Below, piece after piece: positions 11,496-39,024 of a stretch of DNA of 64,000 bases (position 1 is its first letter; every line of letters starts with the position of its first letter). Origin of the DNA: Nemertoderma westbladi (Eukaryota > Animalia > Xenacoelomorpha); NCBI GenBank assembly GCA_032718475.1, contig JAUCBJ010000699.1, positions 66,496 to 130,495 on the forward strand, in the 5' to 3' direction. Position numbers and translations under genes: made by a program. Under the pieces are notes generated by a model. It was not told the DNA's origin and searched no databases. It was given only the letters and a program-made list of their open reading frames with translations.

Positions 11496-11820
11496 CTCCT
11501 ACATAGGAGTCCATGCTGGGCTCTAATTGCGGATGATACCAAATTTCTGGATTGTACTTCTATTATATGAAAGTGTCTCATTAGTTCCCAAAGCTGGTCA
11601 CTTAAAGGGAGCCGCCTCCGCTTTGCAGGACATTTCTTTCACCGTGAGGACCAGCCAATGCATAATCTTGTGATTTAGGGGCCTCATGAACTAGAATAAG
11701 CATGGTGGAGAAACCTTGACTTTCTTGAGACCCCTCTTAAAAGACACTGGCCTTGAAGATGTTGATAATCTGGCGAAACTCATGCGGGATAGGGAGCTGT
11801 GGAGTTGCAATTTTGTCCAC
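11496..11820 (+). mobile_element. 3' fragment of the RTE-like LINE family (third copy)
   Basis: Aligns by eye with ~3615-4000 (catgctgggctctaa, cgcctccgctttgcaggacatt, gacactggccttgaagatg). Confidence 0.85.
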
Positions 11821-12419
11821 ATTGATTATAAATTAATTACTTTGAGATTTGGAACTAAGAAATTTGGGATATGGAACTAATTAATTTGGAATTTGAACTA
11901 CCGGTAACTAATTTGGGATAGAACTACCGGTAATTAAGTTGGGATTTCATTTTGGAATTATGAATATGGAATTAAATAACTGTGGATTTGGAACTTGGGG
12001 TGTCGAATTAATTAAGGATATTATTATTTTTTGCCTCAAATAATATCGATTACATCACTTTACTGAACACGTTCGTGGGGCGTCGCGCAGCGTCTTGTTT
12101 CGAACTTGCGCAAGTCCGAATTGATCTGGAATCAAAAGTTCGAGAGGTATTTGCCCGAAACTTTCAAAAATATTTCATTACAGACGGACAGCCAGACAGA
12201 CGGACATGAAATTTTGCCAAATTTACTAATTATAATTGTGATCTAAGGTTTGCCCTGACTGCGTGGCTCGCCCCACAGTATCAAACCACACAGGTCGTAT
12301 TATATTATTAATATAATTATTAATTAATATTAAATAAAAAATTATTAATATATTATATAAAAATATTATATAAAAATAATTAATATTATCAATTAGTCGA
12401 CAAACCCTAAAATCAACGA

Positions 12420-13839
12420 GGTTGTGTGCGTCTTCCATTAACGGTGCCCATAGCCTACACCAGGTTGTGTGCGTCTTCCATTAACGGTGCCCAAAGCCTA
12501 CACCAGGTTGTGTGCGTCTTCCATTAACGGTGCCCATAGCCTACACCAGGTTGTGTGCGTCTCCCATTAACGGTGCCCATAGCCTACACCAGGTTGTGTG
12601 CGTCTTCCATTAACTGTGCCCGTAGCCTACACCAGGTTGTGTGCGTCTTCCATTAACGGTGCCCGTAGCCTACACCAGGTTGTGTGCGTCTTCCATTAAC
12701 GGTGCCCGTAGCCTACACCAGGTTGTGTGCGTCTTCCATTAACGGTGCCCGTAGCCTACACCAGGTTGTGTGCGTCTTCCATTAACGGTGCCCATAGCCT
12801 ACACCAGGTTGTGTGCGTCTTCCATTAACGGTGCCCGTAGCCTACACCAGGTTGTGTGCGTCTTCCATTAACGGTGCCCGTAGCCTACACCAGGTTGTGT
12901 GCGTCTTCCATTAACGGTGCCCATAGCCTACACCAGGTTGTGTGCGTCTTCCATTAACGGTGCCCGTAGCCTACACCAGGTTGTGTGCGTCTTCCATTAA
13001 CGGTGCCCGTAGCCTACACCAGGTTGTGTGCGTCTTCCATTAACGGTGCCCGTAGCCTACACCAGGTTGTGTGCGTCTTCCATTAACGGTGCCCGTAGCC
13101 TACACCAGGTTGTGTGCGTCTTCCATTAACGGTGCCCGTAGCCTACACCAGGTTGTGTGCGTCTTCCATTAACGGTGCCCGTAGCCTACACCAGGTTGTG
13201 TGCGTCTTCCATTAACGGTGCCCGTAGCCTACACCAGGTTGTGTGCGTCTTCCATTAACGGTGCCCGTAGCCTACACCAGGTTGTGTGCGTCTTCCATTA
13301 ACGGTGCCCGTAGCCTACACCAGGTTGTGTGCGTCTTCCATTAACGGTGCCCGTAGCCTACACCAGGTTGTGTGCGTCTTCCATTAACGGTGCCCGTAGC
13401 CTACACCAGGTTGTGTGCGTCTTCCATTAACGGTGCCCGTAGCCTACACCAGGTTGTGTGCGTCTTCCATTAACGGTGCCCGTAGCCTACACCAGGTTGT
13501 GTGCGTCTTCCATTAACGGTGCCCGTAGCCTACACCAGGTTGTGTGCGTCTTCCATTAACGGTGCCCGTAGCCTACACCAGGTTGTGTGCGTCTTCCATT
13601 AACGGTGCCCGTAGCCTACACCAGGTTGTGTGCGTCTTCCATTAACGGTGCCCGTAGCCTACACCAGGTTGTGTGCGTCTTCCATTAACGGTGCCCGTAG
13701 CCTACACCAGGTTGTGTGCGTCTTCCATTAACGGTGCCCGTAGCCTACACCAGGTTGTGTGCGTCTTCCATTAACGGTGCCCGTAGCCTACACCAGGTTG
13801 TGTGCGTCTTCCATTAACGGTGCCCGTAGCCTACACCAG
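12420..13839. repeat. Highly homogeneous 43-bp minisatellite, ~33 copies
   Basis: Unit CACCAGGTTGTGTGCGTCTTCCATTAACGGTGCCCGTAGCCTA; no spacers. Confidence 0.97.
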
Positions 13840-14765
13840 ATTCCGTGTAGCACAGCAAGAAGGCTGTAGGTCAGTTTTCATGAATCTTCTTTAAATATAC
13901 CTACAATCTGTTCTGATTTAGTATAAAAGTACAGGACGAGGGTCAGTTATCACATACAGATTAAAATTGAGCAAGTCTATCCCAAAATCGGTATTTAAGA
14001 AACTTAAATAAATAAATAAGGAATTTAACCAAACTGCCAATAAGAATAAATCAAAGAAGAGAGGAACCCCCCTTGCTTCAACCGCACTCTTAATCTGCAC
14101 CACCCCAACCCAAAGGAGCACAGAGGATTAATGAAAGGCAGAGGTATTAAGGGGTGTACCCCCCCCCCCTTAACAGGAAATTAGTGGTTAAAAGTAATAT
14201 ATTTTTAGAGGCAATCATTTTGCGAGATAAATAATATACCGATAATAACCGATAATAAGCAAGCTGGTTTATTAGTCACTTTACACTAGTAGTGCCTGCC
14301 TTGCCTATGTCCTATAGATGTAATTACCGTTGCCAAGTGGTGATGAGATAGATGATTGGACTGGTTCCAACTAATAGGCCATAGCTAGTATGCCAAGGAA
14401 TGAGGGAGGTATAGAGTGACGAGGGCATTTTGAAGACTTAATTACGTTTAGATCAATTAAAACACATTTTCTTAAAGCAAATCACTTCAACTAATTAAAA
14501 ACTATAATGGAATAGGGTATGGGGATTACAGCTGTATAATTTTTAAGCCTAATTATTTATATCTTATACTATAAAATAATTAATTTTCATTAAAAGAAAG
14601 GCTTGAAAATGCCGTTTTTACCCTAACCAACATAATTAATTTTAATTTAATTAATTAACTGCTATTATCTTAGCTTCTCGAAGGCCACACGCAAATTCAA
14701 CTTTGGATAGATTTAATCGATATTTGGCTGAGTTATTAACGTTTAAAACTGAACACGACAGAACA

Positions 14766-17002
14766 ACAGACACACCGATTGAGTTAGTGGTACCTGTATG
14801 CTAAACTCGCTTACTTCCGTCGCTCGCTCCCACAGACACACCGATTGAGTTAGTGGTACCTGTATGCTAAGCTCGCTTACTTCCGTCGCTCGCCCCACAA
14901 CAGACACACCGATTGAGTTAGTGGTACCTGTATGCTAAGCTCGCTTACTTCCGTCGCTCGCTCCACACTGACACACCGATTGAGTTAGTGGTACCTGTAT
15001 GCTAAACTCGCTTACTTCCGTCGCTCGCTCCACAACAGACACACCGATTGAGTTAGTGGTACCTGTATGCTAAACTCGCTTACTTCCGTCGCTCGCTCCA
15101 CAACAGACACACCGATTGAGTTAGTGGTACCTGTATGCTAAACTCGCTTACTTCCATCGCTCGCCCCACAACAGACACACCGATTGAGTTAGTGGTACCT
15201 GTATGCTAAACTCGCTTACTTCCGTCGCTCGCTCCACAACAGACACACCGATTGAGTTAGTGGTACCTGTATGCTAAACTCGCTTACTTCCATCGCTCGC
15301 CCCACAACAGACACACCGATTGAGTTAGTGGTACCTGTATGCTAAACTCGCTTACTTCCGTCGCTCGCTCCACAACAGACACACCGATTGAGTTAGTGGT
15401 ACCTGTATGCTAAGCTCGCTTACTTTCGTCGCTCGCCCAACAACAGACACACCAATTGAGTTAGTGGTACCTGTATGCTAAACTCGCTTACTTCCGTCGC
15501 TCGCTCCACAACAGACACACCGATTGAGTTAGTGGTACCTGTATGCTAAACTCGCTTACTTCCGTCGCTCGCTCCACAACAGACACACCGATTGAGTTAG
15601 TGGTACCTGTATGCTAAACTCGCTTACTTCCGTCGCTCGCTCCACAACAGACACACCGATTGAGTTAGTGGTACCTGTATGCTAAACTCGCTTACTTCCA
15701 TCGCTCGCCCCACAACAGACACACCGATTGAGTTAGTGGTACCTGTATGCTAAACTCGCTTACTTCCGTCGCTCGCTCCACAACAGACACACCGATTGAG
15801 TTAGTGGTACCTGTATGCTAAGCTCGCTTACTTCCGTCGCTCGCCCCACAACAGACACACCGATTGAGTTAGTGGTACCTGTATGCTAAACTCGCTTACT
15901 TCCGTCGCTCGCTCCACAACAGACACACCGATTGAGTTAGTGGTACCTGTATGCTAAACTCGCTTACTTCCATCGCTCGCCCCACAACAGACACACCGAT
16001 TGAGTTAGTGGTACCTGTATGCTAAACTCGCTTACTTCCGTCGCTCGCTCCACAACAGACACACCGATTGAGTTAGTGGTACCTGTATGCTAAGCTCGCT
16101 TACTTTCGTCGCTCGCCCAACAACAGACACACCAATTGAGTTAGTGGTACCTGTATGCTAAACTCGCTTACTTCCGTCGCTCGCTCCACAACAGACACAC
16201 CGATTGAGTTAGTGGTACCTGTATGCTAAACTCGCTTACTTCCGTCGCTCGCTCCGCAACAGACACACCGATTGAGTTAGTGGTACCTGTATGCTAAACT
16301 CGCTTACTTCCGTCGCTCGCTCCACTGACACACCGATTGAGTTAGTGGTATCTGTATGCTAAGCTCGCTTACTTTCGTCGCTCGCCCAACAACAGACACA
16401 CCAATTGAGTTAGTGGTACCTGTATGCTAAACTCGCTTACTTTCGTCGCTCGCTCCACAACAGACACACCGATTGAGTTAGTGGTACCTGTATGCTAAGC
16501 TCGCTTACTTCCGTCGCTCGCCCACAACAGACACACCGATTGAGTTAGTGGTACCTGTATGCTAAACTCGCTTACTTTCGTCGCTCGCTCCACAACAGAC
16601 ACACCGATTGAGTTAGTGGTACCTGTATGCTAAGCTCGCTTACTTTCGTCGCTCGCCCAACAACAGACACACCGATTGAGTTAGTGGTACCTGTATGCTA
16701 AACTCGCTTACTTTCGTCCCTCGCCCAACAACAGACACACCGATTGAGTTAGTGGTACCTGTATGCTAAACTCGCTTACTTTCGTCGCTCGCTCCACAAC
16801 AGACACACCGATTGAGTTAGTGGTACCTGTATGCTAAACTCGCTTACTTCCGTCGCTCGCCCCACAACAGACACACCGATTGAGTTAGTGGTACCTGTAT
16901 GCTAAACTCGCTTACTTTCGTCGCTCGCCCCACAACAGACACACCGATTGAGTTAGTGGTACCTGTATGCTAAGCTCGCTTACTTCCGTCGCTCGCCCCG
17001 CA
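14766..17002. repeat. 68-bp minisatellite, ~33 copies, possibly an amplified Helentron/DINE-like 3' end
   Basis: Unit ACAGACACACCGATTGAGTTAGTGGTACCTGTATGCTAAACTCGCTTACTTCCGTCGCTCGCTCCACA; period checked at 15511/15579. Confidence 0.95.
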
Positions 17003-17035
17003 ATGAATCGTATCTGTAGCGGTAGATTTATTTAA

Positions 17036-21495: not shown

Positions 21496-22037
21496 ATCCA
21501 GACACCTAGACCTACTGCTGTACTGGCAACTTGTAGTTGTCTGGCTCTGTAGGCTGGTGGGTAAAGGAGCAGCTAACAGAGGTGTGTTGAAAGGAACCAA
21601 AACAATAAACGAGAGTTACGAGTTAGGAAAATGTAGGAAACCGAATTTAATTGAGAATCGAATCAACAACTTGATGATCAACAGTCAGATGTCAGGATGT
21701 ATAGGTCTACGTCTGTACGTCTACCTACCCCGCTACCGGCAGACTGCTACCCTACCTCGGTGTGTAGGCGTATGTAACAGATCGATGGACAAGCCACCAA
21801 GCACACTACAGCAATACTCAGTAACTAGAATTATCAGTAGGCACGTAAGCTATGTAGGTAAGCAGGTAAGTTATGCGGTAAGCAATAAAAAGTAGACCTA
21901 CCGCTACCGAGTACTGGTACATGCATTCTAACATTAGTTATAAAACACAATACATGCAATACGGTACCTTTTTTTACAATTACTTAAGTTTAAGTAGAGT
22001 TTATGAGTTGTCCCATGAAAGGTTGTCCTTGGTAATT

Positions 22038-22582
22038 TGTGACGGGATCCAGGAAGGATCCCGGTTTATCCGGTTTGTCAATTCACGCGAACCCGCCGTG
22101 TGTGAAAGATAAAAGAGTTTACGTTGTTCGTTGTATATAATATTCGGGATATGTATAGTATAGATATAGATAATGGATAAGATAAATATTGTTGTACGCG
22201 GAAGGCGGGAAACGGTAATTTAAATCCCGGTACTTCCCTAGCTAAACTATTGCTACTGTAACACCAATAACACTGAGATAACTGAATGAGATGATTACTG
22301 CCAACTGGTTATATTGCACGGGTTGGCCTTGTTACTGTACCTAACCGATGCCTTTTCCCCCCTCTGATTGGCTAATGTCCCTATTGGCGCCCTTTGGAGT
22401 GTTTCCGTTCACTCCAGCTATTCTCTCTCGGTTAGGGGTTTGGCCCCTGACCCTCATTGTGTGTTTCTCCTTCCCACTTTGTTGGGGTGACACGAGTTGT
22501 TAGTTACCCAATCTCGTGGCCCCCAATATTGCTTAACGGTTGACTTTATGGGTTTGTGTTAGCGGAATTGAATAAGCTAACA
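22038..22582 (-). repeat. 3' LTR (545 bp)
   Basis: Direct repeat of 35490-36033; by eye ~5 substitutions plus one 1-bp indel. Confidence 0.97.
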
Positions 22583-22592
22583 CTCCCCCCCA
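22583..22592 (-). other. Polypurine tract (plus-strand primer)
   Basis: Sense strand reads a G run plus AG directly abutting the TGTTAGC start of the 3' LTR. Confidence 0.85.
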
Positions 22593-23284
22593 TGCTATCT
22601 TCCCGGTGAGAAGATAGCATCCACCTCAAGTGCGCTACAATTCCGCTGGATCCCGATCTATTATCGGGTGTGGGGTGGAACTATTTTCTTTCGGAGCCGG
22701 CTTTCCAGGCCGCTCCCTATGGGTATGATATCGCTACCCGTTTCGCCTGGCGTCCCATGTCGGGCCGATCGTGCGCTCCTCACATGACTTTTGTTTCCCC
22801 AACACTTCGCCACTTTAACTCTACTCTGTTCTCACCCTGACTCTCCTCTACTTCTCCTCACTACCGCTCTAACTCTCGGACTTCCCTGTCCCTCACTCAG
22901 CCTCTTATTCCTCCCACACACTTGAATTGCATTCGCACTCTCTCTGCACTCTGCACTATCACCTCTTACTCGACCTCCCTTTGACTACCCCATCCCTTCT
23001 TACGAATCTCACTCCCCCTTTGTGCCGTCGCACTCAAGAAATGTGAAGTCGTCTGGTGTCTCGTCCATAGTACCATAGTCAGTTAGCCCCCCAGTCCCAG
23101 TAGCTAATTGAGAAAGGTTGAATGACTATAGTACTTACTTCGAACGTATATTTCATTGCTAAACTACTGATTACTACGTACATACATATAATTGCACTTA
23201 TTTAATTATTTGCATCAGTTTGAATTTGTACTTAATAGTTCGTACGTCCCACGTGGCGCCTTCCAGGCGTACCACATTGAAGTC

Positions 23285-25894
23285 TCAGTTCATCCCCCCT
23301 GACTTTGGGAACCACCTCAAGTCTTTCCCTTTGCCGTCCTCCTCCCTGGGTCGTTTCCTGGTCACTACCGCTCCTCTGGGATCCGCTTTCTGTCTTCGGA
23401 CCCTCGCCGCCACCTCCTTACTGATCCCGGTCGTTGGCTCCCTGGGTGCTGGTGTTATCAGCTCCCGATATCGCTTCGCGGGTGGCCCCTCCAAATGGCC
23501 CTGTTGTCTCCCCCTGGTGGCGTCCCATATGATCATCTTCATTGCCCGCGGCACGTGCTCCGCCAGGAAATCCCTAAACTCCCCTCGGTTCTGTGGCGTC
23601 CACCTGTCCAAATACCTTTGTGTATTCATCACCCCGGCATACGACGCCGCCGTTGCTACCTCTTGATAGGTAAACGGTAGCCTCCGCTTTATGATTTCCA
23701 TGTGAGCCTCCTGATTGATGAGGAAGAAACCCCACTTGAACTCCTGGGCCTTCATGCGCTGGCGCGTCATGGCCCCGACGTCGGCCCACTCCTCGAATCT
23801 TCTGAACTTCTCTTCGTCGTCCATCCAGTCGCACTGGCGTCCGTAGTGTCCCCGAAAGTTGCACTTTGGACATCGGTTATGCAACCGTGGACACGCCCCC
23901 ATCCTGTGGCTCGACTCGCGGCAGTAGAGACAAAAGGTTCCCTTTTGGAACCGGTACAAACAGCTCCTTTCCTGGTGGGTCTGTCTCCCACAGTAGTCGC
24001 AACCGAGTACCAATGTCTCCCGCCTCACGTCGTCTTTCGTCCCAAGCGATCTCCGCGGTCTGTGGAGTCGCTGGTAGGCGAACTTCTGTACGTTAGTGTC
24101 CCTGTCTACGTCGATCTCTCCGCCCCTCTCGGGCATCGTCTCCCCGAATACTACCCGTGGTGCCGTCCCCGGTTGCTCGCCCAACCTGATAGTGCTCCCC
24201 GCGAAATCCATCGCCGGCTCCTCGTGCACCCAGGCCCGCTTGCCGGGTCTATCCCAAAAGGCCCTCGCCCCACTGGCCGTCACCACCCTCCCGCCAACCC
24301 AGTCCGTGTCCGAGTGGCCAATCCTCTCGATGGGCGGCACCTCTCCGAACTCGTCGTCATGTTCCTCCTCCTCTGGCAGTGGCTCCAACCCCGGTATCCC
24401 GATGGATCCACTATGTCCCTTCCCGCCTTGGCTCTCGCCCGTAGCTCTCCATCCCTCTAGCTCCCTTAACTTCCTTGGCGGTTGGTCGCCTTCGGCGCCC
24501 GCTGGTGTGGGCATCGCTTGCAACCCCGACGTCGACTGTTTCGGCGATCCCACCGTCCATCCCAGTTCTCGCCCTAGAGACTCCCCCGAACTCCCTGACG
24601 AAGTCCAACGAAGTTCGTCTAAGCCTGCCTGTTCCTCGAAGCCGTAACTCTGCGTCCTGGCCTCCTCCTCCCTCTCCTCTGCTTCTATCCTCTCCCGTCT
24701 AGCGACTTCTTCCAGTCGCTTTGCCTTTCGTCTATCCGTCTCTAGCTGCTCCCATCTCTGATACGGCGTATCTGTCTCCCCGTCTATCAGATGTCGGCTG
24801 TTGTAGTACACCGACTCGCCCTTCAGCCCCGGGTGGTCTACCAGACCGTCGAAGGCCGTTTTAAAGGCTCTCCTGTAGCTTAGGGGTGATCCCGATAACA
24901 GAAATGCCGCTGGTTCCCTCTCGATAACCGCGGTCAAGAATAAGTTAAGCAAACTTATCATCATCCAATCTTCCTGCAGGATATATCGCTTCTGATATAC
25001 CTTTATCGCTCCTCTGCGGAATTGATATACCTCTTGCCTCCCCGGTCTCGCTCCCCACTTTAGCGAGTTCGCTAGTTCTGCTCCGTATTCCTCCCTGAAC
25101 TTCCCCCAGTCCATCGGTTTGTGGCATACGAGCCCCAATAGCTGGCCCATTGCAACCGCCCCGCATTGGCCTGTGTTCCCGACTACCCCCAACCCATCTG
25201 GTGCCGTCATAGCCATCAAGACCTTCTGCATATCCAGAAGGTTGGTGGCGTCCAGACCGATGATTCTCTCCGCGTCCTCGCGAATCGCCGATCCCACCTT
25301 CGTCGTCGACTTCTCTCTTACCAAGACTTGCACCGCTTTCGGCAACCGGTTTAATTTCGGCCCCTCCTTCTTCCCATACGTTCCTAGATCGAATAAGAAA
25401 ATGTCCCCATTTGGCGCGGCCAAATGTAGGAGTATGGTCCTGGCCGACCCCGCTGATCCTCGTCTCGAACCCTCCTCGTCTTCCACGGTTCCCTCGTCGT
25501 CTAGGATCATATATCCTCCCCTGTTGACGGACTCTATGAATCTCTTCCAATCCTTCTTCGGCGACTCCCTCGGGTACTTCGGAATCCTGAACTTCGCCTC
25601 GTCCCCTTTCACCACGTAGTGGAAGTGTTGGAAGATCGCGTTGTCCAGCGATGGCGTCCCGTAGGTCCCGACCAGCCGCTGTTCGTGCATCTCCCGGAAG
25701 TGGTCCTGCAGCGCTCGTGCCGCGTGACCCTTTTCCAACCTCTCGTAGTATCCTCTCGTCTTCTCTTCCGGATGCCTCTTGGTGAAATCCACCAGTATCT
25801 CCTTTCCTCCTGACTCCGCCTTTCTCTTTCTGATCAGTTTTCCCACCATTTCGAACTCCTCCGATCGCTCACCTATAAGGTGGTGCCTTACCAA
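23285..25894 (-). CDS. Retroelement accessory protein: DEDDy-type 3'-5' exonuclease-like domain plus three CCHC zinc knuckles
   Basis: Intact 869-codon ORF (TTG start in the track; first ATG at 25849); ILDDEG (ExoI), LLHLAAPNGDIFLFDL, KVGSAIREDAERI (ExoII), YQKRYILQED (ExoIII-like); three CX2CX4HX4C motifs at aa 632-688. Confidence 0.8.
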   Translation of the reverse strand: MVRHHLIGERSEEFEMVGKLIRKRKAESGGKEILVDFTKRHPEEKTRGYYERLEKGHAARALQDHFREMHEQRLVGTYGTPSLDNAIFQHFHYVVKGDEAKFRIPKYPRESPKKDWKRFIESVNRGGYMILDDEGTVEDEEGSRRGSAGSARTILLHLAAPNGDIFLFDLGTYGKKEGPKLNRLPKAVQVLVREKSTTKVGSAIREDAERIIGLDATNLLDMQKVLMAMTAPDGLGVVGNTGQCGAVAMGQLLGLVCHKPMDWGKFREEYGAELANSLKWGARPGRQEVYQFRRGAIKVYQKRYILQEDWMMISLLNLFLTAVIEREPAAFLLSGSPLSYRRAFKTAFDGLVDHPGLKGESVYYNSRHLIDGETDTPYQRWEQLETDRRKAKRLEEVARRERIEAEEREEEARTQSYGFEEQAGLDELRWTSSGSSGESLGRELGWTVGSPKQSTSGLQAMPTPAGAEGDQPPRKLRELEGWRATGESQGGKGHSGSIGIPGLEPLPEEEEHDDEFGEVPPIERIGHSDTDWVGGRVVTASGARAFWDRPGKRAWVHEEPAMDFAGSTIRLGEQPGTAPRVVFGETMPERGGEIDVDRDTNVQKFAYQRLHRPRRSLGTKDDVRRETLVLGCDYCGRQTHQERSCLYRFQKGTFCLYCRESSHRMGACPRLHNRCPKCNFRGHYGRQCDWMDDEEKFRRFEEWADVGAMTRQRMKAQEFKWGFFLINQEAHMEIIKRRLPFTYQEVATAASYAGVMNTQRYLDRWTPQNRGEFRDFLAEHVPRAMKMIIWDATRGRQQGHLEGPPAKRYRELITPAPREPTTGISKEVAARVRRQKADPRGAVVTRKRPREEDGKGKDLRWFPKSGGMN

Positions 25895-26327
25895 GGCGCA
25901 ATATAAGTGAGTGATGCAGTTAGGATGGTCTGTACGGTCTGATAATGGCCTATTTTCTATCTAACTACGCCCTTTTAGCCTAATTTCTATTACTTAATTT
26001 TGTAGCTAACAAATGTACCTTATTTGCAATTTCTGTCCGTTGCTTTAATTATGTTCCAGAATAATTTTCCTCCTGTTACCATAATTTGTAATTTTCTTAG
26101 CCCTATTTATTCTATTTTATTTCTAACCTATTTCTACTATTTACTGCTTATGGATTATTCTATTTCATAATCCACATTCTGACCTACGCTATGGGCCTGT
26201 GCAGTACAGCAGTATATGTCGCGTGGCCTACACGATCTATCCAACTGTACTCATATGCCCCCCTCTTGCTACTAACTACTAACTAATATCTATACTATGT
26301 ATACCCTTCTACCTCTCTCTCTTACTA

Positions 26328-26906
26328 ATCGGTACTACGTACCCTCTTACTACTCTCTAACTAACTAACGGTACTACGTACCCTCTAACTCTAACTCTAC
26401 TAACGGTACTGCATACCCTCTTACTACTCTCTAACTCCACTAACGGTACTACGTACCCTCTTACTACTCTTCCAACTCTACTAACGGTACTACGTACCCT
26501 CTTACTACTCTCTAACTCCACTAATGGTACTACGTACCCTCTTACTACTCTTCCAACTCTACTAACTGTACTATGTACCCTCTTACTACTCTTCCAACTC
26601 TACTAATGGTACTACGTACCCTCTTACTACTCTTCCAACTCTACTAACGGTACTACGTACCCTCTTACTACTCTTCCAACTCTACTAACGGTACTACGTA
26701 CCCTCTTACTACTCTTCCAACTCTACTAACGGTACTACGTACCCTCTTACTACTCTTCCAACTCTACTAACGGTACTACGTACCCTCTTACTAACCTCTA
26801 ACTCTACTAACGGTACTACGTACCTTCTAACTGACTAACTAACTAACTAACTAACTCTAGGTACTACGTACCTTCTAACCGACTAACTCTAGGTACCACG
26901 TACCTT
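26328..26906 (-). repeat. Internal ~41-bp tandem array, ~15 copies of a GGTAC-N3-GTACC hairpin
   Basis: Plus-strand unit CTACTAACGGTACTACGTACCCTCTTACTACTCTTCCAACT between the pol stop and ORF3. Confidence 0.92.
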
Positions 26907-27043
26907 CTAACTAACTCCTAACTAACTAACTCTAATTTTTATTTATTTTATTTTTTATTTTTATGTGTAGGAAGGGCGTCTCGCCCTCAATCCCACCCCC
27001 CTCAGTCCAAACTTGGACGACTAAACTACACTCTAACTCCACC

Positions 27044-30000
27044 CTAAGGTGCCCCTTCTAATAGACAGCATTTCCCTACAGCTCTCCTGTAGGTTTTTCT
27101 GTCTTTCGCACCGATCTTTCCACCTATCCGCACTTCTACCGATCGGACATCGGAGTAAGTGCCTACGACTCTCGCCAACCGCCACTGGTTGTTGATGATA
27201 GTATCATCCGTAACGATTACGAGATCTCCCTCTCTTAACTCCCTATTTGACTTCCTCCACTTGCTTCTTCTGTGAAGCGTGGGTAGGTATTCCTCAACCC
27301 ACCTCCTCCAATACTCTGCGCTTATTGCTTTAGCGACCTTCCAACTCTGGCGGGAATGTATGTCATCTGGGTCTACACCCCGCATATCGATGGTCGCTGG
27401 CCTTTCCATTAGAAAATGGCTGGGTGTCAGCACATCTAATGACTCAGGGTCATCATTCTCCGGATATAGCGGTCTGCTATTAATGATCCCCTCGCACTTC
27501 GCAAGCACTGTCCTTAAGACGTCCTCAGTGACCATGTGGGTGTTCATTAGCTTCGTCATAAGACGCTTTGAACTGCCCACCAGTCTCTCGACGCATCCTA
27601 GTGTATGTGGTGCATACGGCGTCCTTCTCTCCCACTTTACTTGTCGTCGTCTCATGGCCGCCCTGACTTCCTCCCCTTCCAAGATGTCCAAGGCCTCTGC
27701 CATCTCGTTCTCTGCTCCCACAAAGTTGGTTCCGCTGTCGGAGTACATTACTGCGATCGTCCCACCTTTGCGGTCTCTGAATCTTTCTAATGCATTAATA
27801 AATGCTGATGCGGTTGCATCTTGGGCGAGTTCTATCCCTACCGCCCGCGTGTTGTTACATACGAAGATAATACCGTAGCGTTTCTCCGTGTGCCGCATCA
27901 CCTTGATCTTTATCGGCCCGAACATGTCCACACCGCAATGTGTAAATGGCGGGTCGTGCTGTCTTACTCTACTCGCTGGTAGTGGCGCCATCTCTTGTAT
28001 GGCTCGCTCCTTCTTCGCTCGTCGGCAGGTCTGGCATTGCCCCACTACCGCTTTTACCTTCTTCCTCAACTGCTTGACCCAAAAGGTCCTCCTTATCTCC
28101 GTGAGAGTTCGGTTGGTGCCCCCGTGCAATATCGACTTATGGGAGTCCCAGATAATCTGGTGGACTATTGGCGATCCTGTGGGAATGATGATGGGTTTCG
28201 GTGGTACGACTATGCTGTTGTTGTATCCCACCCTAGAATTCATTACTAGAATCCCGTCGTCATTAAGTTGTGGCGACAGCGTGATCAGCTCGCTGTCCCG
28301 TCGAAGGTGCTGTTGGTTACCGACGCGTTCCACCTCGTCGCCATAGTTCTTCCGTTGTTCATAGCGGATGACTGCCTTGGCCGCTCCTTCCAGATCTATG
28401 GTTGTCCTGATCTTCTTGTCTTTGCCAACTCCCGCGAGGAAATTCCCGAAGGCTCTCCAGTACGCCACTAATTTCTTGGTCTTATACCAACTAGAGCTGT
28501 AGCTGAGGAGTTTATCTGTCGGGTTATCGCACAGTTCTTCTGGTTTAGGTTGCACGTCCCTTATCTCCCTCACCATCTGGGAGTATATCTCTTCTCCCTC
28601 TGAATCTCCCTCTTCTCCTTCTGACACTACCTCTCCTGAGTCCGGGTCCACCTTTCTCATCGGCGGCCAGGCCTCCTTGTCGCTCAGAAACTGCGGCCCG
28701 TGTTGCCACAATCCTTCCTTTTTTAAGAAAGTGTGGCGTGCCACGCCCCTTGATAACAAGTCCGCTGGGTTCTCGTCCGTTGGGCAGTAGTGCCACCTTT
28801 CCAATTCTGTGGTCGCCCTTATCTCGTCCACCCTGTTCGCGACGAATATTGGGTATCTCGTCCTTTCGTTATGTAGCCAACCAAGCACTACCATGGAGTC
28901 CGTCCAGTAGTGTGTCTCCACTATGTTGGGAATAGTATCCACTAGGTAGGCTGTGGCTCTAACTCCTAGTCTCGCAGCTGTCAATTCTAATTTGGGAACT
29001 GATGCTGAATCTGGCGGCGTTGACTTTGCTTTGCTAAAGGCCAGTCTGGGCTTGTGAGCCCCCTCTCGTTGTACTAAATAGAGTGCCGCTCCGTACGCCT
29101 CCAACGACGCATCGGAGAACATGTGTAGGTCCAGATTCGTCATGTTCCCATCCGGGAAATACACTCGTGGCATGTTGTATGTTCCCATCTTCTCCAAGTC
29201 TCCTGTCCACTTACTCCACTGTTTCTTGATTTCCTCTGGTACCTCTACGTCCCACTCATCCTTCAATTTGTATACTCTCTTGAGTATCTGTTTCCCCGTG
29301 ACTAATAATGGGGATGCTAGACCTAGGGGATCGTATATCCTTGCTATATACGACACATAGCCCCTCTTCGTGTGGATGTCTGCGCCCTCCTGGCTCAGCT
29401 GATACTTCAGTTCGTCTGTCTCTCTGTTCCACACGATTCCCAATGCCTTCTGTTGAGATTCTGTTCTCTTGTTCGCCATGTCCTGCCCTTTGGCTGTTGT
29501 GGGATTATCCATGGTCGATTCTGGTCTCTTGTCCTCTATCGCCTTGATAAATTCTTCCGAACTGGATTGGAATTTGGTCAGGTTAAAGCCGGATCCTTTT
29601 AGGATGTCGCGAACCTCGCGCCCTGTGTCCAGTATCTCCTTAACCGTATTTCCAGACTCCATTCCGTCGTCTACGTAGAAGCCGCGTCGAATCATATCGA
29701 CGGCCCTAGTGCTGTATCTATCTTCCTTCCCCTTCACCGTATCTCTCACTGCCATAGTCGTCGTAAATGAAGACGACTTGGCTCCCATATTTTGTACTAC
29801 CATCTTATATGCCGGTATTATCGACGGTTCTTCCTCGCCGTTATACCATAAGAAGCGTTGACTGTCGCTATCTTCCTCCGTTACACGGACTTGGTTGAAC
29901 ATGCCTTCTATGTCACACGTGAAGGCGTGTTTCCCATTTCTAAATCTAAGTAGGACCTCTATCCCCGAGTTGTATATGTTTGGACCTTCTAGCAGGTAGT

Positions 30001-32437
30001 CGTTTAAGCATTTTCCGTTGGTCTTTGCCGATGCGTCAACTACCATCCGCAGTTTACCTTTCTTTGGGTCTAAAGCCACGTGGAGTGGCAGGTAATATGT
30101 CCTGTCCGTGTTTGGTTCGTCGACCGGTAACTCCACGGCCCATCCTTTCTCGACGTACTTCTTAATCGTTCTGTGGATGTACTCATTCTTCTCGGGGCTC
30201 CGTTTTAGTGTTTGTTTCAGCTTGCGGAGTCTCGTGAGTACCATCCCTCTATTATCGGGCAGTGGTAACTTCGGTAGTTTCCATACCATTCCTACGGTGT
30301 ACCGCCCCTCGTCGCACTTCATAGACTCCTCTACGCTCTGCTGAGCCTGTTTGTCTTCCACCGAGGTCCCGACCCCGGTCTCCTTTAATCCTTCAAAATC
30401 CTGTCTGAGCAGTCTTTTAAGTTGCTCCTCTGCTCTCTCATCACTCATTTCCTGCATAGTTCCCGCGAACATGCATCCTGATGTCTCCGACATCCTAAAT
30501 GGTATCTTGCTCTTGATTGGGCCACTTAGCGTCCACCCGAATGGTGTCAGTATTGCCACCGGGTCAGACTGCTTGTCTTCGCCGAAGACCGTTTGCATTC
30601 TTTCGTGGGCCGTTGGGCAGTCCATTCCTACTATGATGGATACCTTCCTAACGTCCACATCTGGGATTGAGAAGTCAATATCGTCCAGAAATTTATATTG
30701 TTCGACCTCGATGTTGGTTGGCCGTCTGGCATTGATGTTTATTGACTCTATCACTTGGATGGGGTCGATGCTAGCCCCATAGTCGCATCCTGGTGCTATT
30801 GCTGCGATGGTGCACCGTCCGGTTCTCATCTCCAGGACCTCATCTTTGCTGGAGATGGTTGTTACCGCCATTCTGCTTGGCCTCGTTCTCAATCCTATTT
30901 CTTCGGCCACCCAATCCTCGACTAATGTGAAGGCAGCTCCACTATCAACCAGCATTAGTGTTGTTACTGATCGATTGCCTTCTCCAATCACTCGTACGGG
31001 TACTACCCCAAGTAACACCGTTCCTCTCTTCTTCGCCCCTACTGTGCTCGTTGCCATCGTTTGGCCTTTCCTTTGACCGAACTTGACCGGCATCTCCTTG
31101 CATTCCCTAGCTCTATGTCCACTCATCACACATCGCGAGCAGATCTTGTTGCTCGCCGCATAATCTATCTGATCTTGCCTAGATAGCGCTTGCCAGTACC
31201 TGCAGTTCATGGTTTGATGAAGCGCATTTGTATGTAGCTGGCATTTGCTCTTTGGGTCGTAGCCCTCCTTATACAGTGCATCGCGTATCGCAGCTGCGTT
31301 TGTACCAAAGTCCCTACTATTCTTATTGTTTGGATTCGGCCTACTGGACGTACTGGGGTTATATTTATTCGTGTTGTTATTGTTCCCCTGTCCGTTCCAT
31401 GGTGTGGTCTTACTTTCGGCTACCTGTGGACTTGCAGTCCCCTGCGTCGCTGCATATGGCAGTGATTGCCTGAGCCTCGGTAATGCGTTTGATGTATTGT
31501 GCTCTGGTTTCGGTCTATGGTAATCCGTCTTCGGTCCCTTCCCCAGGCTATCTTCGCTATAGACTGGGTCGGTTATTAGTTCAGCTTCGTAGTTTAAGAA
31601 GCTTGACATTTCTTCTAAACCCGGTTCCGCACCCTTCCTATCTCGAGTGGAGAAAGCGATTTTCCTCCACTTGTTGCGCAACCACATCGGTAGTGCCTGC
31701 GCTATCGTGGTGATGTTGTTGGACGCATTGAGTTCGTATGGCGCGTCTAGTGTCTTTAACACGATCAGCGCCTTCTCAACCTTGTTCGCAAATGTCTTAA
31801 TGCTAACGGGATTATCCTGTAGGCCACCCGATGTTATGCCTCTCAGGGTCTGCCTGATGATCTTGGCTGGGTGTCCGTATTCCCTGTCCAGTGCCCGCCA
31901 TGCTGTCGTGAAGCCGCCCTCTCTGCCCTGATATTGCCTCACGATGTCATATGCTGGGCCTCCTGTGTATACTTGCAAATACTTTAGGCACTCCGTCTGC
32001 GTTAAGTTCTTTGTTAGTATTTCATTGCTATACATACGCCGAAACTGGAGATATTCTTCCGGCCTACTCCCATCGAATTTGAATGGTTCCACGGGTGGTA
32101 ATTCGATCCTTGTTTTTAATGCATCGATCAATGTGGCCATCCCCATCGCCTGCGCTTCCAATGGATTCGATGGATGTTGTATAGTTCCTCCTGTTGGGTG
32201 CCGTCCGCTCGTTCTATTTTCTGCCTTTCTATGGCTTGGGTATATCATTGGGGGTAGCGGCCCCCTCCATATTTCTGTGTCACACGACCTATTTTCATCC
32301 AATGGTCTCGTTGTCCTTGCTCCTATCGGGGTATATTGTTGATATTGCGATGGGGGAATGTCACCCTGTCCCCCCCCCCCCCCCCCACCGGTATTTATGG
32401 TATTGGGGTTGATGTTAATATATTGGGGCCCATGCAT
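27044..32437 (-). CDS. gag-pol: BEL/Pao Gag(core)-Pol polyprotein
   Basis: DUF1759-like LPPVEPFKFDG; Cys/His knuckle CSRCVMSGHRAREC; protease LVDSGA; RT CDIEGMFNQV...FYVDDG; RNase H FSDAS...WTDSMVVLGW; integrase HHCC and D(MFG)-D(SG)-E(RL); C-terminal WRRWVEEYLPTL. Confidence 0.97.
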   Translation of the reverse strand: MHGPQYININPNTINTGGGGGGGQGDIPPSQYQQYTPIGARTTRPLDENRSCDTEIWRGPLPPMIYPSHRKAENRTSGRHPTGGTIQHPSNPLEAQAMGMATLIDALKTRIELPPVEPFKFDGSRPEEYLQFRRMYSNEILTKNLTQTECLKYLQVYTGGPAYDIVRQYQGREGGFTTAWRALDREYGHPAKIIRQTLRGITSGGLQDNPVSIKTFANKVEKALIVLKTLDAPYELNASNNITTIAQALPMWLRNKWRKIAFSTRDRKGAEPGLEEMSSFLNYEAELITDPVYSEDSLGKGPKTDYHRPKPEHNTSNALPRLRQSLPYAATQGTASPQVAESKTTPWNGQGNNNNTNKYNPSTSSRPNPNNKNSRDFGTNAAAIRDALYKEGYDPKSKCQLHTNALHQTMNCRYWQALSRQDQIDYAASNKICSRCVMSGHRARECKEMPVKFGQRKGQTMATSTVGAKKRGTVLLGVVPVRVIGEGNRSVTTLMLVDSGAAFTLVEDWVAEEIGLRTRPSRMAVTTISSKDEVLEMRTGRCTIAAIAPGCDYGASIDPIQVIESININARRPTNIEVEQYKFLDDIDFSIPDVDVRKVSIIVGMDCPTAHERMQTVFGEDKQSDPVAILTPFGWTLSGPIKSKIPFRMSETSGCMFAGTMQEMSDERAEEQLKRLLRQDFEGLKETGVGTSVEDKQAQQSVEESMKCDEGRYTVGMVWKLPKLPLPDNRGMVLTRLRKLKQTLKRSPEKNEYIHRTIKKYVEKGWAVELPVDEPNTDRTYYLPLHVALDPKKGKLRMVVDASAKTNGKCLNDYLLEGPNIYNSGIEVLLRFRNGKHAFTCDIEGMFNQVRVTEEDSDSQRFLWYNGEEEPSIIPAYKMVVQNMGAKSSSFTTTMAVRDTVKGKEDRYSTRAVDMIRRGFYVDDGMESGNTVKEILDTGREVRDILKGSGFNLTKFQSSSEEFIKAIEDKRPESTMDNPTTAKGQDMANKRTESQQKALGIVWNRETDELKYQLSQEGADIHTKRGYVSYIARIYDPLGLASPLLVTGKQILKRVYKLKDEWDVEVPEEIKKQWSKWTGDLEKMGTYNMPRVYFPDGNMTNLDLHMFSDASLEAYGAALYLVQREGAHKPRLAFSKAKSTPPDSASVPKLELTAARLGVRATAYLVDTIPNIVETHYWTDSMVVLGWLHNERTRYPIFVANRVDEIRATTELERWHYCPTDENPADLLSRGVARHTFLKKEGLWQHGPQFLSDKEAWPPMRKVDPDSGEVVSEGEEGDSEGEEIYSQMVREIRDVQPKPEELCDNPTDKLLSYSSSWYKTKKLVAYWRAFGNFLAGVGKDKKIRTTIDLEGAAKAVIRYEQRKNYGDEVERVGNQQHLRRDSELITLSPQLNDDGILVMNSRVGYNNSIVVPPKPIIIPTGSPIVHQIIWDSHKSILHGGTNRTLTEIRRTFWVKQLRKKVKAVVGQCQTCRRAKKERAIQEMAPLPASRVRQHDPPFTHCGVDMFGPIKIKVMRHTEKRYGIIFVCNNTRAVGIELAQDATASAFINALERFRDRKGGTIAVMYSDSGTNFVGAENEMAEALDILEGEEVRAAMRRRQVKWERRTPYAPHTLGCVERLVGSSKRLMTKLMNTHMVTEDVLRTVLAKCEGIINSRPLYPENDDPESLDVLTPSHFLMERPATIDMRGVDPDDIHSRQSWKVAKAISAEYWRRWVEEYLPTLHRRSKWRKSNRELREGDLVIVTDDTIINNQWRLARVVGTYSDVRSVEVRIGGKIGAKDRKTYRRAVGKCCLLEGAP

Positions 32438-35421
32438 CTATCCGCAATAATTCCCCCCTCCCCTGGGTATATGTTATATCCTTTCGTGCTGTAGTCATAC
32501 TGCTGCACTGGTACCGGTATAGGCCTATCAGCTTCTGGCCTACCTGCCGGTATGTACTCCGCGACTTCCGGGTTTAATTCCGTCGTCCGCGCTATCCTAT
32601 CGCCTACATTATTCCTGTCAGCATGGCCTATGGTATATGCAGTAAGGCCTACAGTATGTCCTACAGTCTGTATGTATTGCTCGGGATCGAAGTTTATTCT
32701 TCTCGAATAATCCTCCCCGCGGTTACCGTACTCTCGATCCGTTGGTATATCCCATCGGAAAGTTTCTCTTCGACCCTCTCTACTACTCTCGTCTACGTGC
32801 CGGTACATCGCTATCCGTCCTCGCTCTCCTGTCGTTCGCGGCGATACTTCTTCTGCTGTCTTCTCTTCTCCTCCTCTCAGTGCAATATTCCCGCTCATGA
32901 GATCTCTCGTCGACCTCCCGGTTAAACTCCACTGTTCTTCTTCCCTCTTCTGATCGGGCTCGACGCTTCGTCCGCCCTCTCGCGACATCGACCTGCTTCT
33001 CTCTGCTCGATCGCACGCCGCTGGGGATACTCGCAATCCCCCTATTACTCTCCGTCGCCGGGTGTTGCGGTTTACCTGATTCGGCCCGCGCATTATCCAC
33101 TGACGGCTGTGGGACACTCTCTGCCCCCCCCCCCCCCCTTCGCCACTAATTTCTCGTTGTGGGGCTCCTGTAGCCCCCCCCCCCCACTCGCCACATATTA
33201 TACCGCTACCTCTAACTTCTCTTCTACACCCCTCTCCAGTCGACACTATATTTCTACTGCGGCTGGGTTCACTTACCCCTGCCTCTCTCTCCACTACTAC
33301 TTGGCCTATCGGGCCTACTCCGGGTTGGCTCAACCCCGCCACCTCCTGCCTACTAACTACGTGGCCTACCATGCCACCGTCGGGTCGACTCAACCCCGCC
33401 ACCTCCTGCCTGCTAACTACGTGGCCTACCAGGCCACCGTCTGTCGGCTCATGCACGTCCGACGCGTTCGCGTTAATAGCACCTATATTAGAAACGGAAT
33501 TATTTTGTTCGTTCGAAATAGAATCATTTGGATTATTTTGCGCGACTACGTTATTTGAATTATTTTGTAAATTCGGGCTTGGATTATTATTTAAATTATT
33601 TGAGTTATTATTATTTTCTAAATTTAAATTATCATTCGGATTATTTTGCACGTTTAAATCAAAATTATTATTTAGGCTATCTGTATTTAAATTCAAATTA
33701 CTACTACCAGGCAAAGTATTTCCTGCAATATAAGTTTGGTTAGGATTATCCGATACGGTACCATTAATATTAACGTCGTCTACAGTAGCATTATTATTAC
33801 CCCCCCCCCCCCCCCCCCCGCCCGTACGGTCACACCAGTTTCGTGTCTGTCGTGCGGTCCCTGTAAGTGGGGTATTAATAAATGTATCCACGGCCCCTGG
33901 CTCCTCGAGAATATTCGAGCCAGCCCCGCTCTCAGATGCCCCTATCCGCGCCAGTTCTAGTTCGCGTATGCGTCTAGCCTTGTACTCTATAAGCTCCTTT
34001 TGCTCTCTTTCCATTTTTTCTCGCAAACGCTTCTCTCTTGCCATTCTCTCCTGGTCCTCCCGTGCGTTCTGGTTGGCCAGTTCCGCCTCTCTCTTAGCTC
34101 GCTCCCTTCACCTCGCCTCACGCTCTCTACGCTCACTTTCCTCTCTCGCCTCACGTTCCTTGCGTTCCTTTTCCTCTCTCGCCTCACGTTCCTTGCGTTC
34201 CTTTTCCTCTCTCGCCTCACGTTCCTTGCGTTCTGCCTCACGCTCTTTGCGTTCTGCCTCACGCTCTTTGCGTTTACTTTTCTCTCTCGCCACACGCTCC
34301 TCTTGTTCCCTCCTTTCTATTTCCTCACACTCCTTAAGGCTTTCCACGGCCTTCTCGGCCCTCTCCCTGGTTTCTCTAATCAGTACTGCTTCCCTCTCTA
34401 GTTGTATTCTCCCCTCCTCTAACCGCCTATTTAACTCTCTCTGACCTTGTTCTATCAGGTTGAGATGGTACGTGGCATTTATCTCTCTCACCCGTCTTTC
34501 TTTCACGGAGGATGTAGCAGACTTATCGGTTACGACGGATTCCCTCCGCCTTCCCGACCTACTAACTCTCCCCCCCTTTCCAGAACTTCCCCCGACCGAC
34601 GAGATCGAATCCTCAGGCTCAACCTCGGATTCGCCCTCCTCAGGTCTCCTCCAACCCACAAATTTTACACCCTGGGCATCGACTAAGTATGGCCCTACGT
34701 ACACTGCACTAGGTTGCATACCCCTACACCGCCATAAATCACACAGTTCCTCTGCAACCCCTCTCGCTCTCTCCTTGGCCAGTTCTCTCTGCCCGAAACG
34801 CATTAGATAGCTAAAATGTCTATTCGACTCATCTAGTCCTCTCGTTAACTTCACCTCATCTATCTCCGTCCCCTTCTTGGCCTCCTTTAGTAGCTTCCGG
34901 GTCGCGTTGTAGGCCCGTCGAAGTTGATCAGAAACCCCGACGTCCTCGTTGCCGACCTCTCCTCCGTCTCTCCGGGTCCGACGTCGTACCGGCGGCCCCA
35001 CCGTCGCCGTTCCGGTGGGCCGTCCGTCGCCCTCGGCCTGTAGCTGGCCAGCGACATCGGTACCGACATCTCCCCCGTCTCTCCGGGTCCGGCGTTGTAC
35101 CGTCGGTCCCACCGTCGCCGTTTCGGTGGGCCGTTCGTCGCCCTCGGCCTGTGGCTGGCCGGCGACGTCGGCACGTCGACCCTCGTTCTGTGTCGACTCG
35201 TCTCCTTCTCCTTCCAACTCACCCTCTCGGTCTCTCAACTCGACTCCCCCTCCTCTCGACTCGACCTCTGGCTCCAGACGGCCCCCCTCGTCCTGAACTG
35301 CCGGATCACCCGTTACCGATGGGTCTGGCGACGTGGGCCTATACCGCCTGGTCGCGGCCTCACGGATCGTTAGTTCTTCGTCCGGGGTCCGCGTCGGTGT
35401 CATCTCTCCTGACTGACTCAT
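32395..35421 (-). CDS. gag: Long low-complexity/coiled-coil Gag N-terminal region interrupted by one in-frame TGA (34108-34110)
   Basis: ORFs 34108-35421 and 32395-34044 are in the same frame and joined by open codons after TGA; PEDSISSV motif followed by an E/R/K coiled coil, typical of BEL Gag N-termini. Confidence 0.7.
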
Positions 35422-35489
35422 CTCTCTTCAATAGATTGGTGGCTGGTAGTTACTGAGTTCAACTAGGGCGGCAGCTCTGATTCAATTAC

Positions 35490-36033
35490 TGTGACGGGAT
35501 CCAGGAAGGATCCCGATTTATCCGGTTTGTCAATTCACGCATCCCCGCCGTGTGTGAAAGATAAAAGAGTTTACGTTGTTCGTTGTATATAATATTCGGG
35601 ATATGTATAGTATAGATATAGATAATGGATAAGATAAATATTGTTGTACGCGGAAGGCGGGAAACGGTAATTGAAATCCCGGTACTTCCCTAGCTAAACT
35701 ATTGCTACTGTAACACCAATAACACTGAGATAACTGAATGAGATGATTACTGCCAACTGGTTATATTGCACGGGTTGGCCTTGTTACTGTACCTAACCGA
35801 TGCCTTTTCCCCCTCTGATTGGCTAATGTCCCTATTGGCGCCCTTTGGAGTGTTTCCGTTCACTCCAGCTATTCTCTCTCGGTTAGGGGTTTGGCCCCTG
35901 ACCCTCATTGTGTGTTTCTCCTTCCCACTTTGTTGGGGTGACACGAGTTGTTAGTTACCCAATCTCGTGGCCCCCAATATTGCTTAACGGTTGACTTTAT
36001 GGGTTTGTGTTAGCGGAATTGAATAAGCTAACA
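35490..36033 (-). repeat. 5' LTR (544 bp)
   Basis: Direct repeat of 22038-22582. Confidence 0.97.
35732..35838 (-). promoter_or_regulatory. Putative LTR Pol II promoter: CCAAT x2, TATAA and TCAGTT initiator
   Basis: Minus strand: CCAAT at 35838-35834 and 35822-35818; TATAA starting 35765; TCAGTT with A at 35735, exactly 30 nt downstream. Confidence 0.55.
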
Positions 36034-36431
36034 TAATTAATAACATTCATTGGAAATACATGCATGCATGCAGTTAGATTTGAATTTCCCGCCCACACAA
36101 AGTGTTTATCCATGAATGAATGATGAAAATCATTAAAATTGAAGCTTCAGTAGCCCTTGGCTAATATACCGGTATAAGAGATCGTCTACTGTAGGCGCAT
36201 ATATATATATAATTGGGGCTGCGGGTGCTGCTTTCGGTTGAAATTAACTTATGAACTTAATTTCGGGAATATTTTATTTCCTTTTCAAAACCAAAATATT
36301 AACCTAAATTTATCACAGTTGACTGTTAACATTTTACTCCTAGCTACAGTATGGGTCGTTTCTAATTCTCCAATATAAGAATCGATACTCGGCATTATAG
36401 CTATACCAAATTGGAGTAATTTATTATTGGT

Positions 36432-38668: not shown

Positions 38669-39024
38669 ATCTTATATATGTTGTTACTGAATATAAGAAG
38701 AAATATTTAACCTTATTGTATAGTAGATATATGTCTATAAATTATTGATATGGTCCACCTAAATGGTTTAAATATGTGAAGATCTATTTTATGTTAAATA
38801 CGCAAATACTTATAGAATAGTATTTGATAGTATTTGATAAATTAATGATACCATTACATACTGTAGATGGATAGAGTAAGATCAGCAATTCCACAGTATC
38901 CTGTGAGTTTTGTTCATTGTATTTGAAAGCAAAGCCCACACTATAACTGTATAGTTTTGTATTATTTTCATTTGTAATATTTAATAAACTGAAATTGTAG
39001 TTTCCATAACAGTAGGATCTAAAG

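Follow-up and report, generated by a model that had tools for sequence, protein, structure and literature searches.

A conserved third gene with a predicted DEDDy exonuclease fold and a three-knuckle zinc domain in a BEL/Pao retrotransposon lineage

Locus and host element

The window analyzed here is a stretch of 64,000 nucleotides (nt) from the xenacoelomorph Nemertoderma westbladi (GenBank assembly GCA_032718475.1, contig JAUCBJ010000699.1, positions 66,496-130,495). It carries on its minus strand a BEL/Pao retrotransposon of 13,996 bases (22038-36033) in which an additional open reading frame (ORF), ORF3, lies between pol and the 3' long terminal repeat (LTR), the position that an envelope (env) gene occupies in some elements of this kind. 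The comparisons described below show ORF3 to be a conserved third gene of a BEL/Pao lineage, with a product predicted to join a domain of DEDDy exonuclease fold to a three-knuckle zinc domain. The features of the element, from its 5' to its 3' end, are as follows (aa, amino acids).

36034-36038, no strand: first copy of the target-site duplication AATTA (second copy at 22033-22037; supported by the empty site)
35490-36033, minus strand: 5' LTR (TG...CA), identified by comparison with the 3' LTR
34108-35421, minus strand: first piece of the gag region, terminated by an in-frame stop
32395-34107, minus strand: second piece of the gag region, in a different frame from the gag-pol ORF
27044-32437, minus strand: BEL/Pao gag-pol with DUF1759, two knuckles, protease, reverse transcriptase (YVDD), RNase H (Peptidase_A17), integrase and DUF5641, ending in TAG-G
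25895-27043, minus strand: non-coding pol-ORF3 spacer of 1149 bases, with 37 stops in the pol frame
23285-25894, minus strand: ORF3, encoding the exonuclease-fold and zinc-finger protein (first ATG at 25849)
24917-25549, minus strand: predicted DEDDy exonuclease domain, aa 116-326 (profile, model and superposition)
23555-24037, minus strand: three-knuckle zinc domain and conserved helical extension, aa about 620-780 (no clear fold match)
22583-22594, minus strand: polypurine tract, just before the 3' LTR
22038-22582, minus strand: 3' LTR

A first-pass annotation of this DNA had assigned the element to BEL/Pao, and both the LTR pair and pol bear this out: the 27044-32437 ORF matches Peptidase_A17 (the Pao-type RNase H; E-value: 3e-40), DUF5641 and the gag domain DUF1759 in Pfam, and its domains follow the order protease, reverse transcriptase, RNase H, integrase. 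Three gag knuckles are typical of BEL/Pao. Pattern matching finds three in 7 of 11 long relatives of the element and two in the window gag (aa 399-446 of the same ORF), the first with C-x2-H. The LTRs, which end in TG..CA, are 98.9% identical over 545 bases, and the 5-bp AATTA duplication stands on either side of the element. In public contigs of runs X1, X2 and X3 (which represent two samples, one possibly the window's own source), 22032 is joined to 36034 with 5 shared letters. This is the empty site, and the insertion is therefore recent; the element is a young and complete BEL/Pao copy. The gag lesions that had been reported earlier are present: the frame is interrupted by a stop near 34108 and changes at about 32400-32440. 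No primer site starting with TGG was found after the window's 5' LTR (35466-35489), unlike in the relatives, where the sequence after the 5' LTR mostly reads TGGCGCCCAAC, an ordinary tRNA-end site with a TGG start (presumably for tRNA-Lys). Contigs from all four runs compared cover both ORF3 and pol (30/30 bins). A 41-bp tandem array of 12.7 copies in the pol-ORF3 spacer (26323-26832) varies among sibling copies, and 530-750 bases from the tail of ORF3 (window 23269-24030) are missing from some sibling contigs, at weakly supported joints.

ORF3 reading frame and expression

ORF3 had been recorded as an intact 869-codon sense ORF, and its coordinates and frame agree: it encodes 869 aa plus a stop in the same sense as pol, in a frame that is open from 25960 and has its first ATG at residue 16. 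Because 37 in-frame stops separate the end of pol from ORF3, the window copy has to start translation at its own ATG. Immediately 5' of this ATG a splice acceptor is plausible, with a branch-point-like CCTAAC near 25924 and candidate AG dinucleotides at 25887 and 25873. An envelope-like anchor had been judged absent, and no transmembrane-like stretch was found in the window ORF3 (highest 19-residue hydropathy 1.33); hydropathy exceeds 1.9 in only 1 of 48 family ORFs. We rejected an envelope function for ORF3, as it lacks a transmembrane anchor and its predicted fold is that of a DEDDy protein and not of a fusogen. The window ORF3 alone has no match in Pfam, and word-based protein searches with it returned none.

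Exonuclease domain

The DEDDy motifs that had been quoted at aa ~128-320 are all present in the window ORF3: D132 (nt 25501) and E134 (nt 25495) form the ExoI D-x-E, and D207 (nt 25276) the ExoII aspartate, of DEDDy exonucleases, with D221 (nt 25234), Y304 (nt 24985), E308 (nt 24973) and D309 further along. D132, E134, D207, Y304 and E308 align with the catalytic columns of the family. ExoIII had been described as either substituted by E or shifted by one; only the substitution holds, as E308 replaces the aspartate exactly at the Y-x3-D position. The full D-E-D-D-Y-D set is found in 18 of the 29 loci with an intact ExoI, while five relatives with an intact ExoI (P0005, P0006, P0010, P0016 and P0082) have the same Y-x3-E as the window.

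Three kinds of comparison point to the same fold. A family profile (A1) searched against PDB proteins matched EXD2 (E-value: 4.5e-13), followed by the Trypanosoma brucei RNase D (TbRND), Egalitarian and WRN; TbRND was the only PDB protein matched in both halves. Foldseek with the predicted domain model (predicted local distance difference test score, pLDDT, 80) gave 58 matches at E ≤ 0.001, the top rows all DEDD-type, with EXD1 and RICE1 also among the matches. Finally, the model superimposes on the Nibbler EXO domain with Z 13.6 and a root-mean-square deviation of 3.5 over 200 residues, and on NrnC, apPol and WRN with Z 13.3-13.5 (WRN 13.3). Atlas features for the window ORF3 likewise point to WRN-like exonucleases (0.93-0.94), and only 2 of 38 family members match Pfam DNA_pol_A_exo1. 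The N-terminal domain of ORF3 is accordingly modeled as a DEDDy (WRN/Nibbler-type, DnaQ-like) fold.

Zinc domain

The three CX2CX4HX4C knuckles previously placed at aa 632-688 are confirmed by pattern, running from C632 (nt 24001) to C688 (nt 23833). They are not followed merely by a basic tail, as had been thought: a conserved helical region (F-E-x-x-A-D-x-G..W-G-F) comes after them, and knuckles and helical part together form the C-terminal unit (model pLDDT 84). Structure searches with the zinc domain gave no significant fold match (best Z 3.9), a result that does not show a new fold; the top Foldseek row was TbRND at a non-significant E-value of 1.8, and all Atlas matches were under 0.9. 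The proteins matched by the knuckles are RNA binders such as Lin28, TbRND and nucleocapsid.

The ORF3 family and its linkage to BEL pol

An unindexed protein search with a cutoff of E ≤ 0.001 identified 88 ORF3 relatives, each with its best match in the knuckle region. An iterated profile within these 88 detects the exonuclease domain in 39 of the 45 relatives of at least 440 aa, so that the exonuclease-knuckle fusion noted in the window is common to long family members; a profile built from the first 15 sequences already finds it in 38. A DNA pattern for the knuckle motif, run over metagenome contigs, gave at least 120 loci. The locus counts that follow are among the matches listed. The zinc-domain profile matches 115 of 120 pattern loci, and the 5 that failed were dropped. 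Forty loci without flanks (L081-L120) were left out of the linkage counts, and among the 80 flanked loci 76 have the zinc domain, 57 the exonuclease and 47 both in one ORF.

The search for further copies linked to BEL pol was positive. BEL pol lies upstream in the same sense in 29 of the 31 loci with at least 5 kb of upstream sequence and in 35 of the 42 with at least 3 kb; the other 7 have no pol match, and those scanned have no Pfam match. All 12 scanned pol ORFs of relatives match Peptidase_A17 and/or DUF5641. Trees of ORF3 and integrase from 35 elements agree (Mantel r 0.87, p 0.001), with 18 of 32 splits in common, and the two genes share ancestry. The 116 zinc domains form 98 clusters at 90% identity and 36 at 50%. 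ORF3 is widespread among the contigs found; 67 of the 80 flanked contig names share two accession prefixes, and the spread therefore counts among contigs found and not as host breadth. A motif scan of viral contigs gave 0 loci.

Two variants of architecture were observed. The ORF3 frames of L005, L015, L043 and L051 are 1300-1600 codons long, with long N-terminal extensions that have no Pfam match. At L047:3341-6529 and L059:6880-9648, a zinc-domain ORF3 without an exonuclease-profile match stands behind BEL pol; its N-terminal domain may have diverged or been replaced.

Purifying selection

The ratio of nonsynonymous to synonymous change (dN/dS) had been proposed as a check on ORF3, and the values are far below 1. 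The exonuclease domain gives 0.04-0.26 in all 24 measurable of 25 listed pairs, from active and dead types alike, and the zinc domain gives 0.03-0.37; the pairs, selected beforehand by similarity, are not independent of one another. In the comparison of the window element with its sibling copies, the best 40 of 134 differences in 24850-25600 (several of them from one divergent contig) include 27 at third positions and 26 that are synonymous, against an expectation of 34% (p 7e-5). No indels are listed at 5% among sibling copies in the ORF3 stretch. These results show ORF3, as read from sequence comparison, to be under purifying selection. The survival of an intact ORF3 beside a damaged gag had been called compatible with selection; both observations stand, but the argument is weak in so young a copy, since a neutral ORF would survive with a probability of about 0.56 on substitutions alone, or of about 0.05 when the indel rate is taken from the single LTR indel.

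A clade without catalytic residues

ExoI D-x-E is kept in 29 of the 51 loci with ExoI aligned. In the integrase tree, a fully supported clade of 15 consists of 12 elements without D-x-E and 3 that are unreadable, while all members of another clade of 13 have D-E-D-D-Y-D. The first clade, here called dead, keeps both domains and also shows low dN/dS. The alignments thus show that one ORF3 branch has lost its predicted catalytic residues yet stays conserved. With a large conserved clade lacking these residues, catalysis cannot be the whole function of the family. Egalitarian is an inactive exonuclease-fold protein. EXD1 is an inactive RNA-binding derivative of the DEDDy fold (PMC5408684). As the dead clade keeps both domains, as these two proteins do, we infer that RNA binding rather than cutting may be the common core function.

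Candidate readthrough signal in relatives

In 10 of the 40 loci with an integrase upstream, again among the matches listed, the ORF3 frame opens immediately behind the pol stop. The stop is TGA in all 10 and is followed by C in 9; 8 of the 10 single-stop elements belong to the dead clade. With five more TGA-C elements they make up a UGA-type set of 15, of which 13 are of the dead type (12 in the tree clade; L021 is too short to place) and two active. UGA-C is present in 14 of the 15, UGA-CGG in 7 (L002, L007, L029, L033, L037, L062 and L068) and CAAUUA in 2. ORF3 is in the pol frame in 12 of the 15, compared with 7 among the remaining 25 (Fisher p 0.003 without correction for kinship; the elements are related and the counts not independent). 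Ten linkers of 520-886 nt between the pol stop and the exonuclease domain are stop-free in the pol frame.

A stem-loop follows the UGA-C at L007:1234-1290, L034, L037, L065, L066, L068 and nine more loci. It starts about 9 nt after the pol stop and has an unpaired TCGG at a fixed distance, +19/+20. Across 6 elements of the same length, 10 of the 14 pairs show a change in both partners and 0 of 500 shuffles scored as high, in a test for which the stem-loop was derived from the same sequences that were counted and the 6 were chosen out of 15 for their equal length. When the stem-loop was slid as a control, the paired share fell to 36-48%. The viral type II readthrough motif consists of UGA-CGG and a stem-loop about 8 nt downstream (PMC3542737), and the stem-loops of the UGA-type relatives lie at about that spacing. 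UGA-C with the stem-loop in the dead clade is therefore likely to be a type II readthrough signature and a candidate recoding signal.

Besides kinship and the derivation of the stem-loop, several points count against recoding. The UGA-C elements have folding z-scores that are lower by no more than a modest margin (median -1.24 versus -0.29, p 0.03; L039, with a broken pol frame, was left out). Three of the 15 UGA-type elements are out of frame, and one element has an additional stop; conservation of the linker peptide is poor; and an ordinary start is available at a Met-Phe conserved some 70 aa ahead of the exonuclease domain. Readthrough does not apply to the window copy, with its TAG-G and 37 in-frame stops. 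The stem-loop could instead be another cis element (for packaging, dimerization, an internal promoter or splicing), with ORF3 always made from its own ATG. The Met-Phe start and the out-of-frame elements suit this alternative, as does the fixed TCGG, which suggests a protein-binding bulge; YTGAC at the stop also resembles a branch point, and a word-based protein search, itself weak, found no stop-free Pol-ORF3 fusion. The UGA-C stop, its CGG or CAAUUA context, the position of the stem and the frame bias nevertheless fit known readthrough motifs, and the ten stop-free linkers also speak against the alternative, which we consider somewhat unlikely.

Possible functions of ORF3

With a probability of roughly 0.5, ORF3 is a zinc-finger-guided protein that trims or binds RNA 3' ends and works on RNA or particles of the element itself. 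The zinc-finger domain of TbRND increases both the binding and the cleavage of RNA (PMC7797062); by analogy, the knuckles of ORF3 would grip single-stranded RNA and direct its 3' end into a two-metal site (D132, E134, D207 and E308). Catalytically intact copies such as the window's would trim RNA 3' ends, and the work would be done in cis on the element transcript or particle, as 3'-end clean-up, protection or sorting. In the window element the protein would be translated from the ORF3 ATG of a spliced or subgenomic RNA, whereas the UGA-C clade could also make it as a low-level extension of Gag-Pol that carries it into the particle. A broader picture can be offered only tentatively: an old, undescribed BEL/Pao lineage whose own zinc-finger-guided RNA exonuclease edits or protects RNA of the element or neutralizes small RNAs of the host, and in one branch of which a dead RNA-binding module is added to Gag-Pol by readthrough at a conserved stem-loop.

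Some considerations pull the other way. Nuclease function, substrate and expression are predictions from sequence and models. WRN, apPol and Klenow tie with Nibbler within 1-2 Z units, and DEDDy folds also act on DNA; superposition therefore cannot tell an RNA from a DNA substrate. The nuclease activity of the window protein itself is unsure because it has E308 in place of the usual aspartate and sits on a long branch, with 25% identity to the nearest locus; the window element has no supported neighbor in the trees.

The first-pass annotation had proposed an RNA-binding nuclease in anti-silencing defense, primer trimming, proofreading or genomic RNA handling. The nuclease fold joined to knuckles like those of RNA binders stands; catalysis as the whole function does not, and primer trimming finds no support in the ordinary TGG-starting sites of the relatives. 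Truncated-tRNA priming, considered as a motive for a nuclease, was rejected on the same ground.

Counter-defense is an unlikely reading, in which the protein would degrade or sequester host Piwi-interacting or small interfering RNAs, as a rogue Nibbler/Mut-7 or a decoy, with the dead clade acting by binding alone. The best structural match is the Nibbler EXO domain, with EXD1 and RICE1 among the matches; overexpression of TbRND, which is built on the same plan of two domains, depletes small guide RNAs (PMC7797062); and a silencing-related role has been raised for the DEDDy ORF3s of rotifers (PMC5408684). Three points argue against it. First, individual copies could dispense with a suppressor acting in trans, as it would be a shared good, yet ORF3 follows the ancestry of integrase. 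Second, low-level readthrough suits particle loading better than sequestration. Third, several other DEDDy enzymes match as well as Nibbler does.

Less probable still is a DNA-end editor, tethered to integrase, that proofreads or trims the 3' ends of complementary DNA (non-templated bases at strand transfer, or ends before integration) or clears its by-products. WRN and polymerase proofreading domains match equally well, readthrough would fuse ORF3 directly behind integrase, and a DEDDy domain is also present in Dada DNA transposases, where a role in processing cut ends has been proposed for it (PMC3706591). Readthrough is commonest, however, in the clade without catalysis, which is still under purifying selection, and the knuckle matches are RNA binders. 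A recently captured host gene or neutral passenger, for which nothing speaks beyond the general possibility of gene capture, is highly improbable given the number of zinc-domain clusters, the co-descent with integrase and the low dN/dS.

Relationship to known systems

To our knowledge, LTR retrotransposons rarely carry accessory enzymes, and those that they carry are unexplained. Among the closest parallels to ORF3 are the Juno and Vesta LTR elements and the Terminons of bdelloid rotifers, which likewise have an RNase D-like DEDDy ORF3 after pol, in the env position and without a transmembrane segment, and with no demonstrated activity or function (Rodriguez, Kenefick and Arkhipova 2017, PMC5408684). 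A DEED variant occurs there and was read in 3 loci of the present family. Those elements are Juno/Vesta lineages found specifically in rotifers; the excerpted text names no BEL/Pao element and, compared by description only, contains no three-knuckle fusion, dead clade or readthrough.

TbRND (PDB 7C42/7C45) also has a DEDD exonuclease followed by a CCHC zinc-finger domain, but is a cellular enzyme of the mitochondrion that has four knuckles and a linker of 28 aa (PMC7797062), in contrast to the three knuckles, helical extension and linker of about 290 aa of the element-encoded ORF3. The two plans are probably convergent. Nibbler/Mut-7, WRN-exo, EXD2, EXD1 and Egalitarian share the fold of the ORF3 exonuclease domain but are only 12-22% identical over aligned parts and have no knuckle domain of the ORF3 kind. 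SIRE1 similarly has a third ORF one stop after pol, with suppression of the pol-env stop (as cited in PMC2829016); it is a plant copia element with an env-like ORF, whereas here the element is BEL/Pao, the ORF has an exonuclease fold and the readthrough concerns relatives and not the window copy. Within BEL/Pao, Roo and the mosquito elements with chuvirus glycoproteins carry extra ORFs that encode membrane fusogens (PMC13524379), while the present ORF3 product is predicted to be soluble.

The earlier view that no characterized BEL element has an exonuclease-knuckle fusion agrees with our search: no exonuclease ORF in BEL/Pao was found in the open literature, a search that lay outside Repbase, GyDB, subscription papers and supplements. 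The word "exonuclease" is absent from the main text of PMC3118150, PMC13524379 and PMC12440569, although the element files of PMC3118150 could contain this ORF. The ORF3 family comprises dozens of versions that are divergent and under selection, in natural active and dead forms and with two predicted expression routes, so that the role of a 3'-5' exonuclease in a retroelement becomes directly testable, and it adds a zinc domain without a clear structural match and a candidate animal readthrough signal.

Other features of the window

Two single-frame host genes are present, encoding a galactose-3-O-sulfotransferase (7891-9126, plus strand) and a flavin adenine dinucleotide-dependent oxidoreductase of the DAO family (37457-38671, minus strand). 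Pieces of other reverse-transcriptase elements lie at 2654-4023, 10971-11498 and 39028-39908. Tandem arrays occupy 12416-13842 and 14763-17003, and from 43900 to 64000 the window consists of an array of about 20 kb of a 58-bp satellite with strong GC skew.

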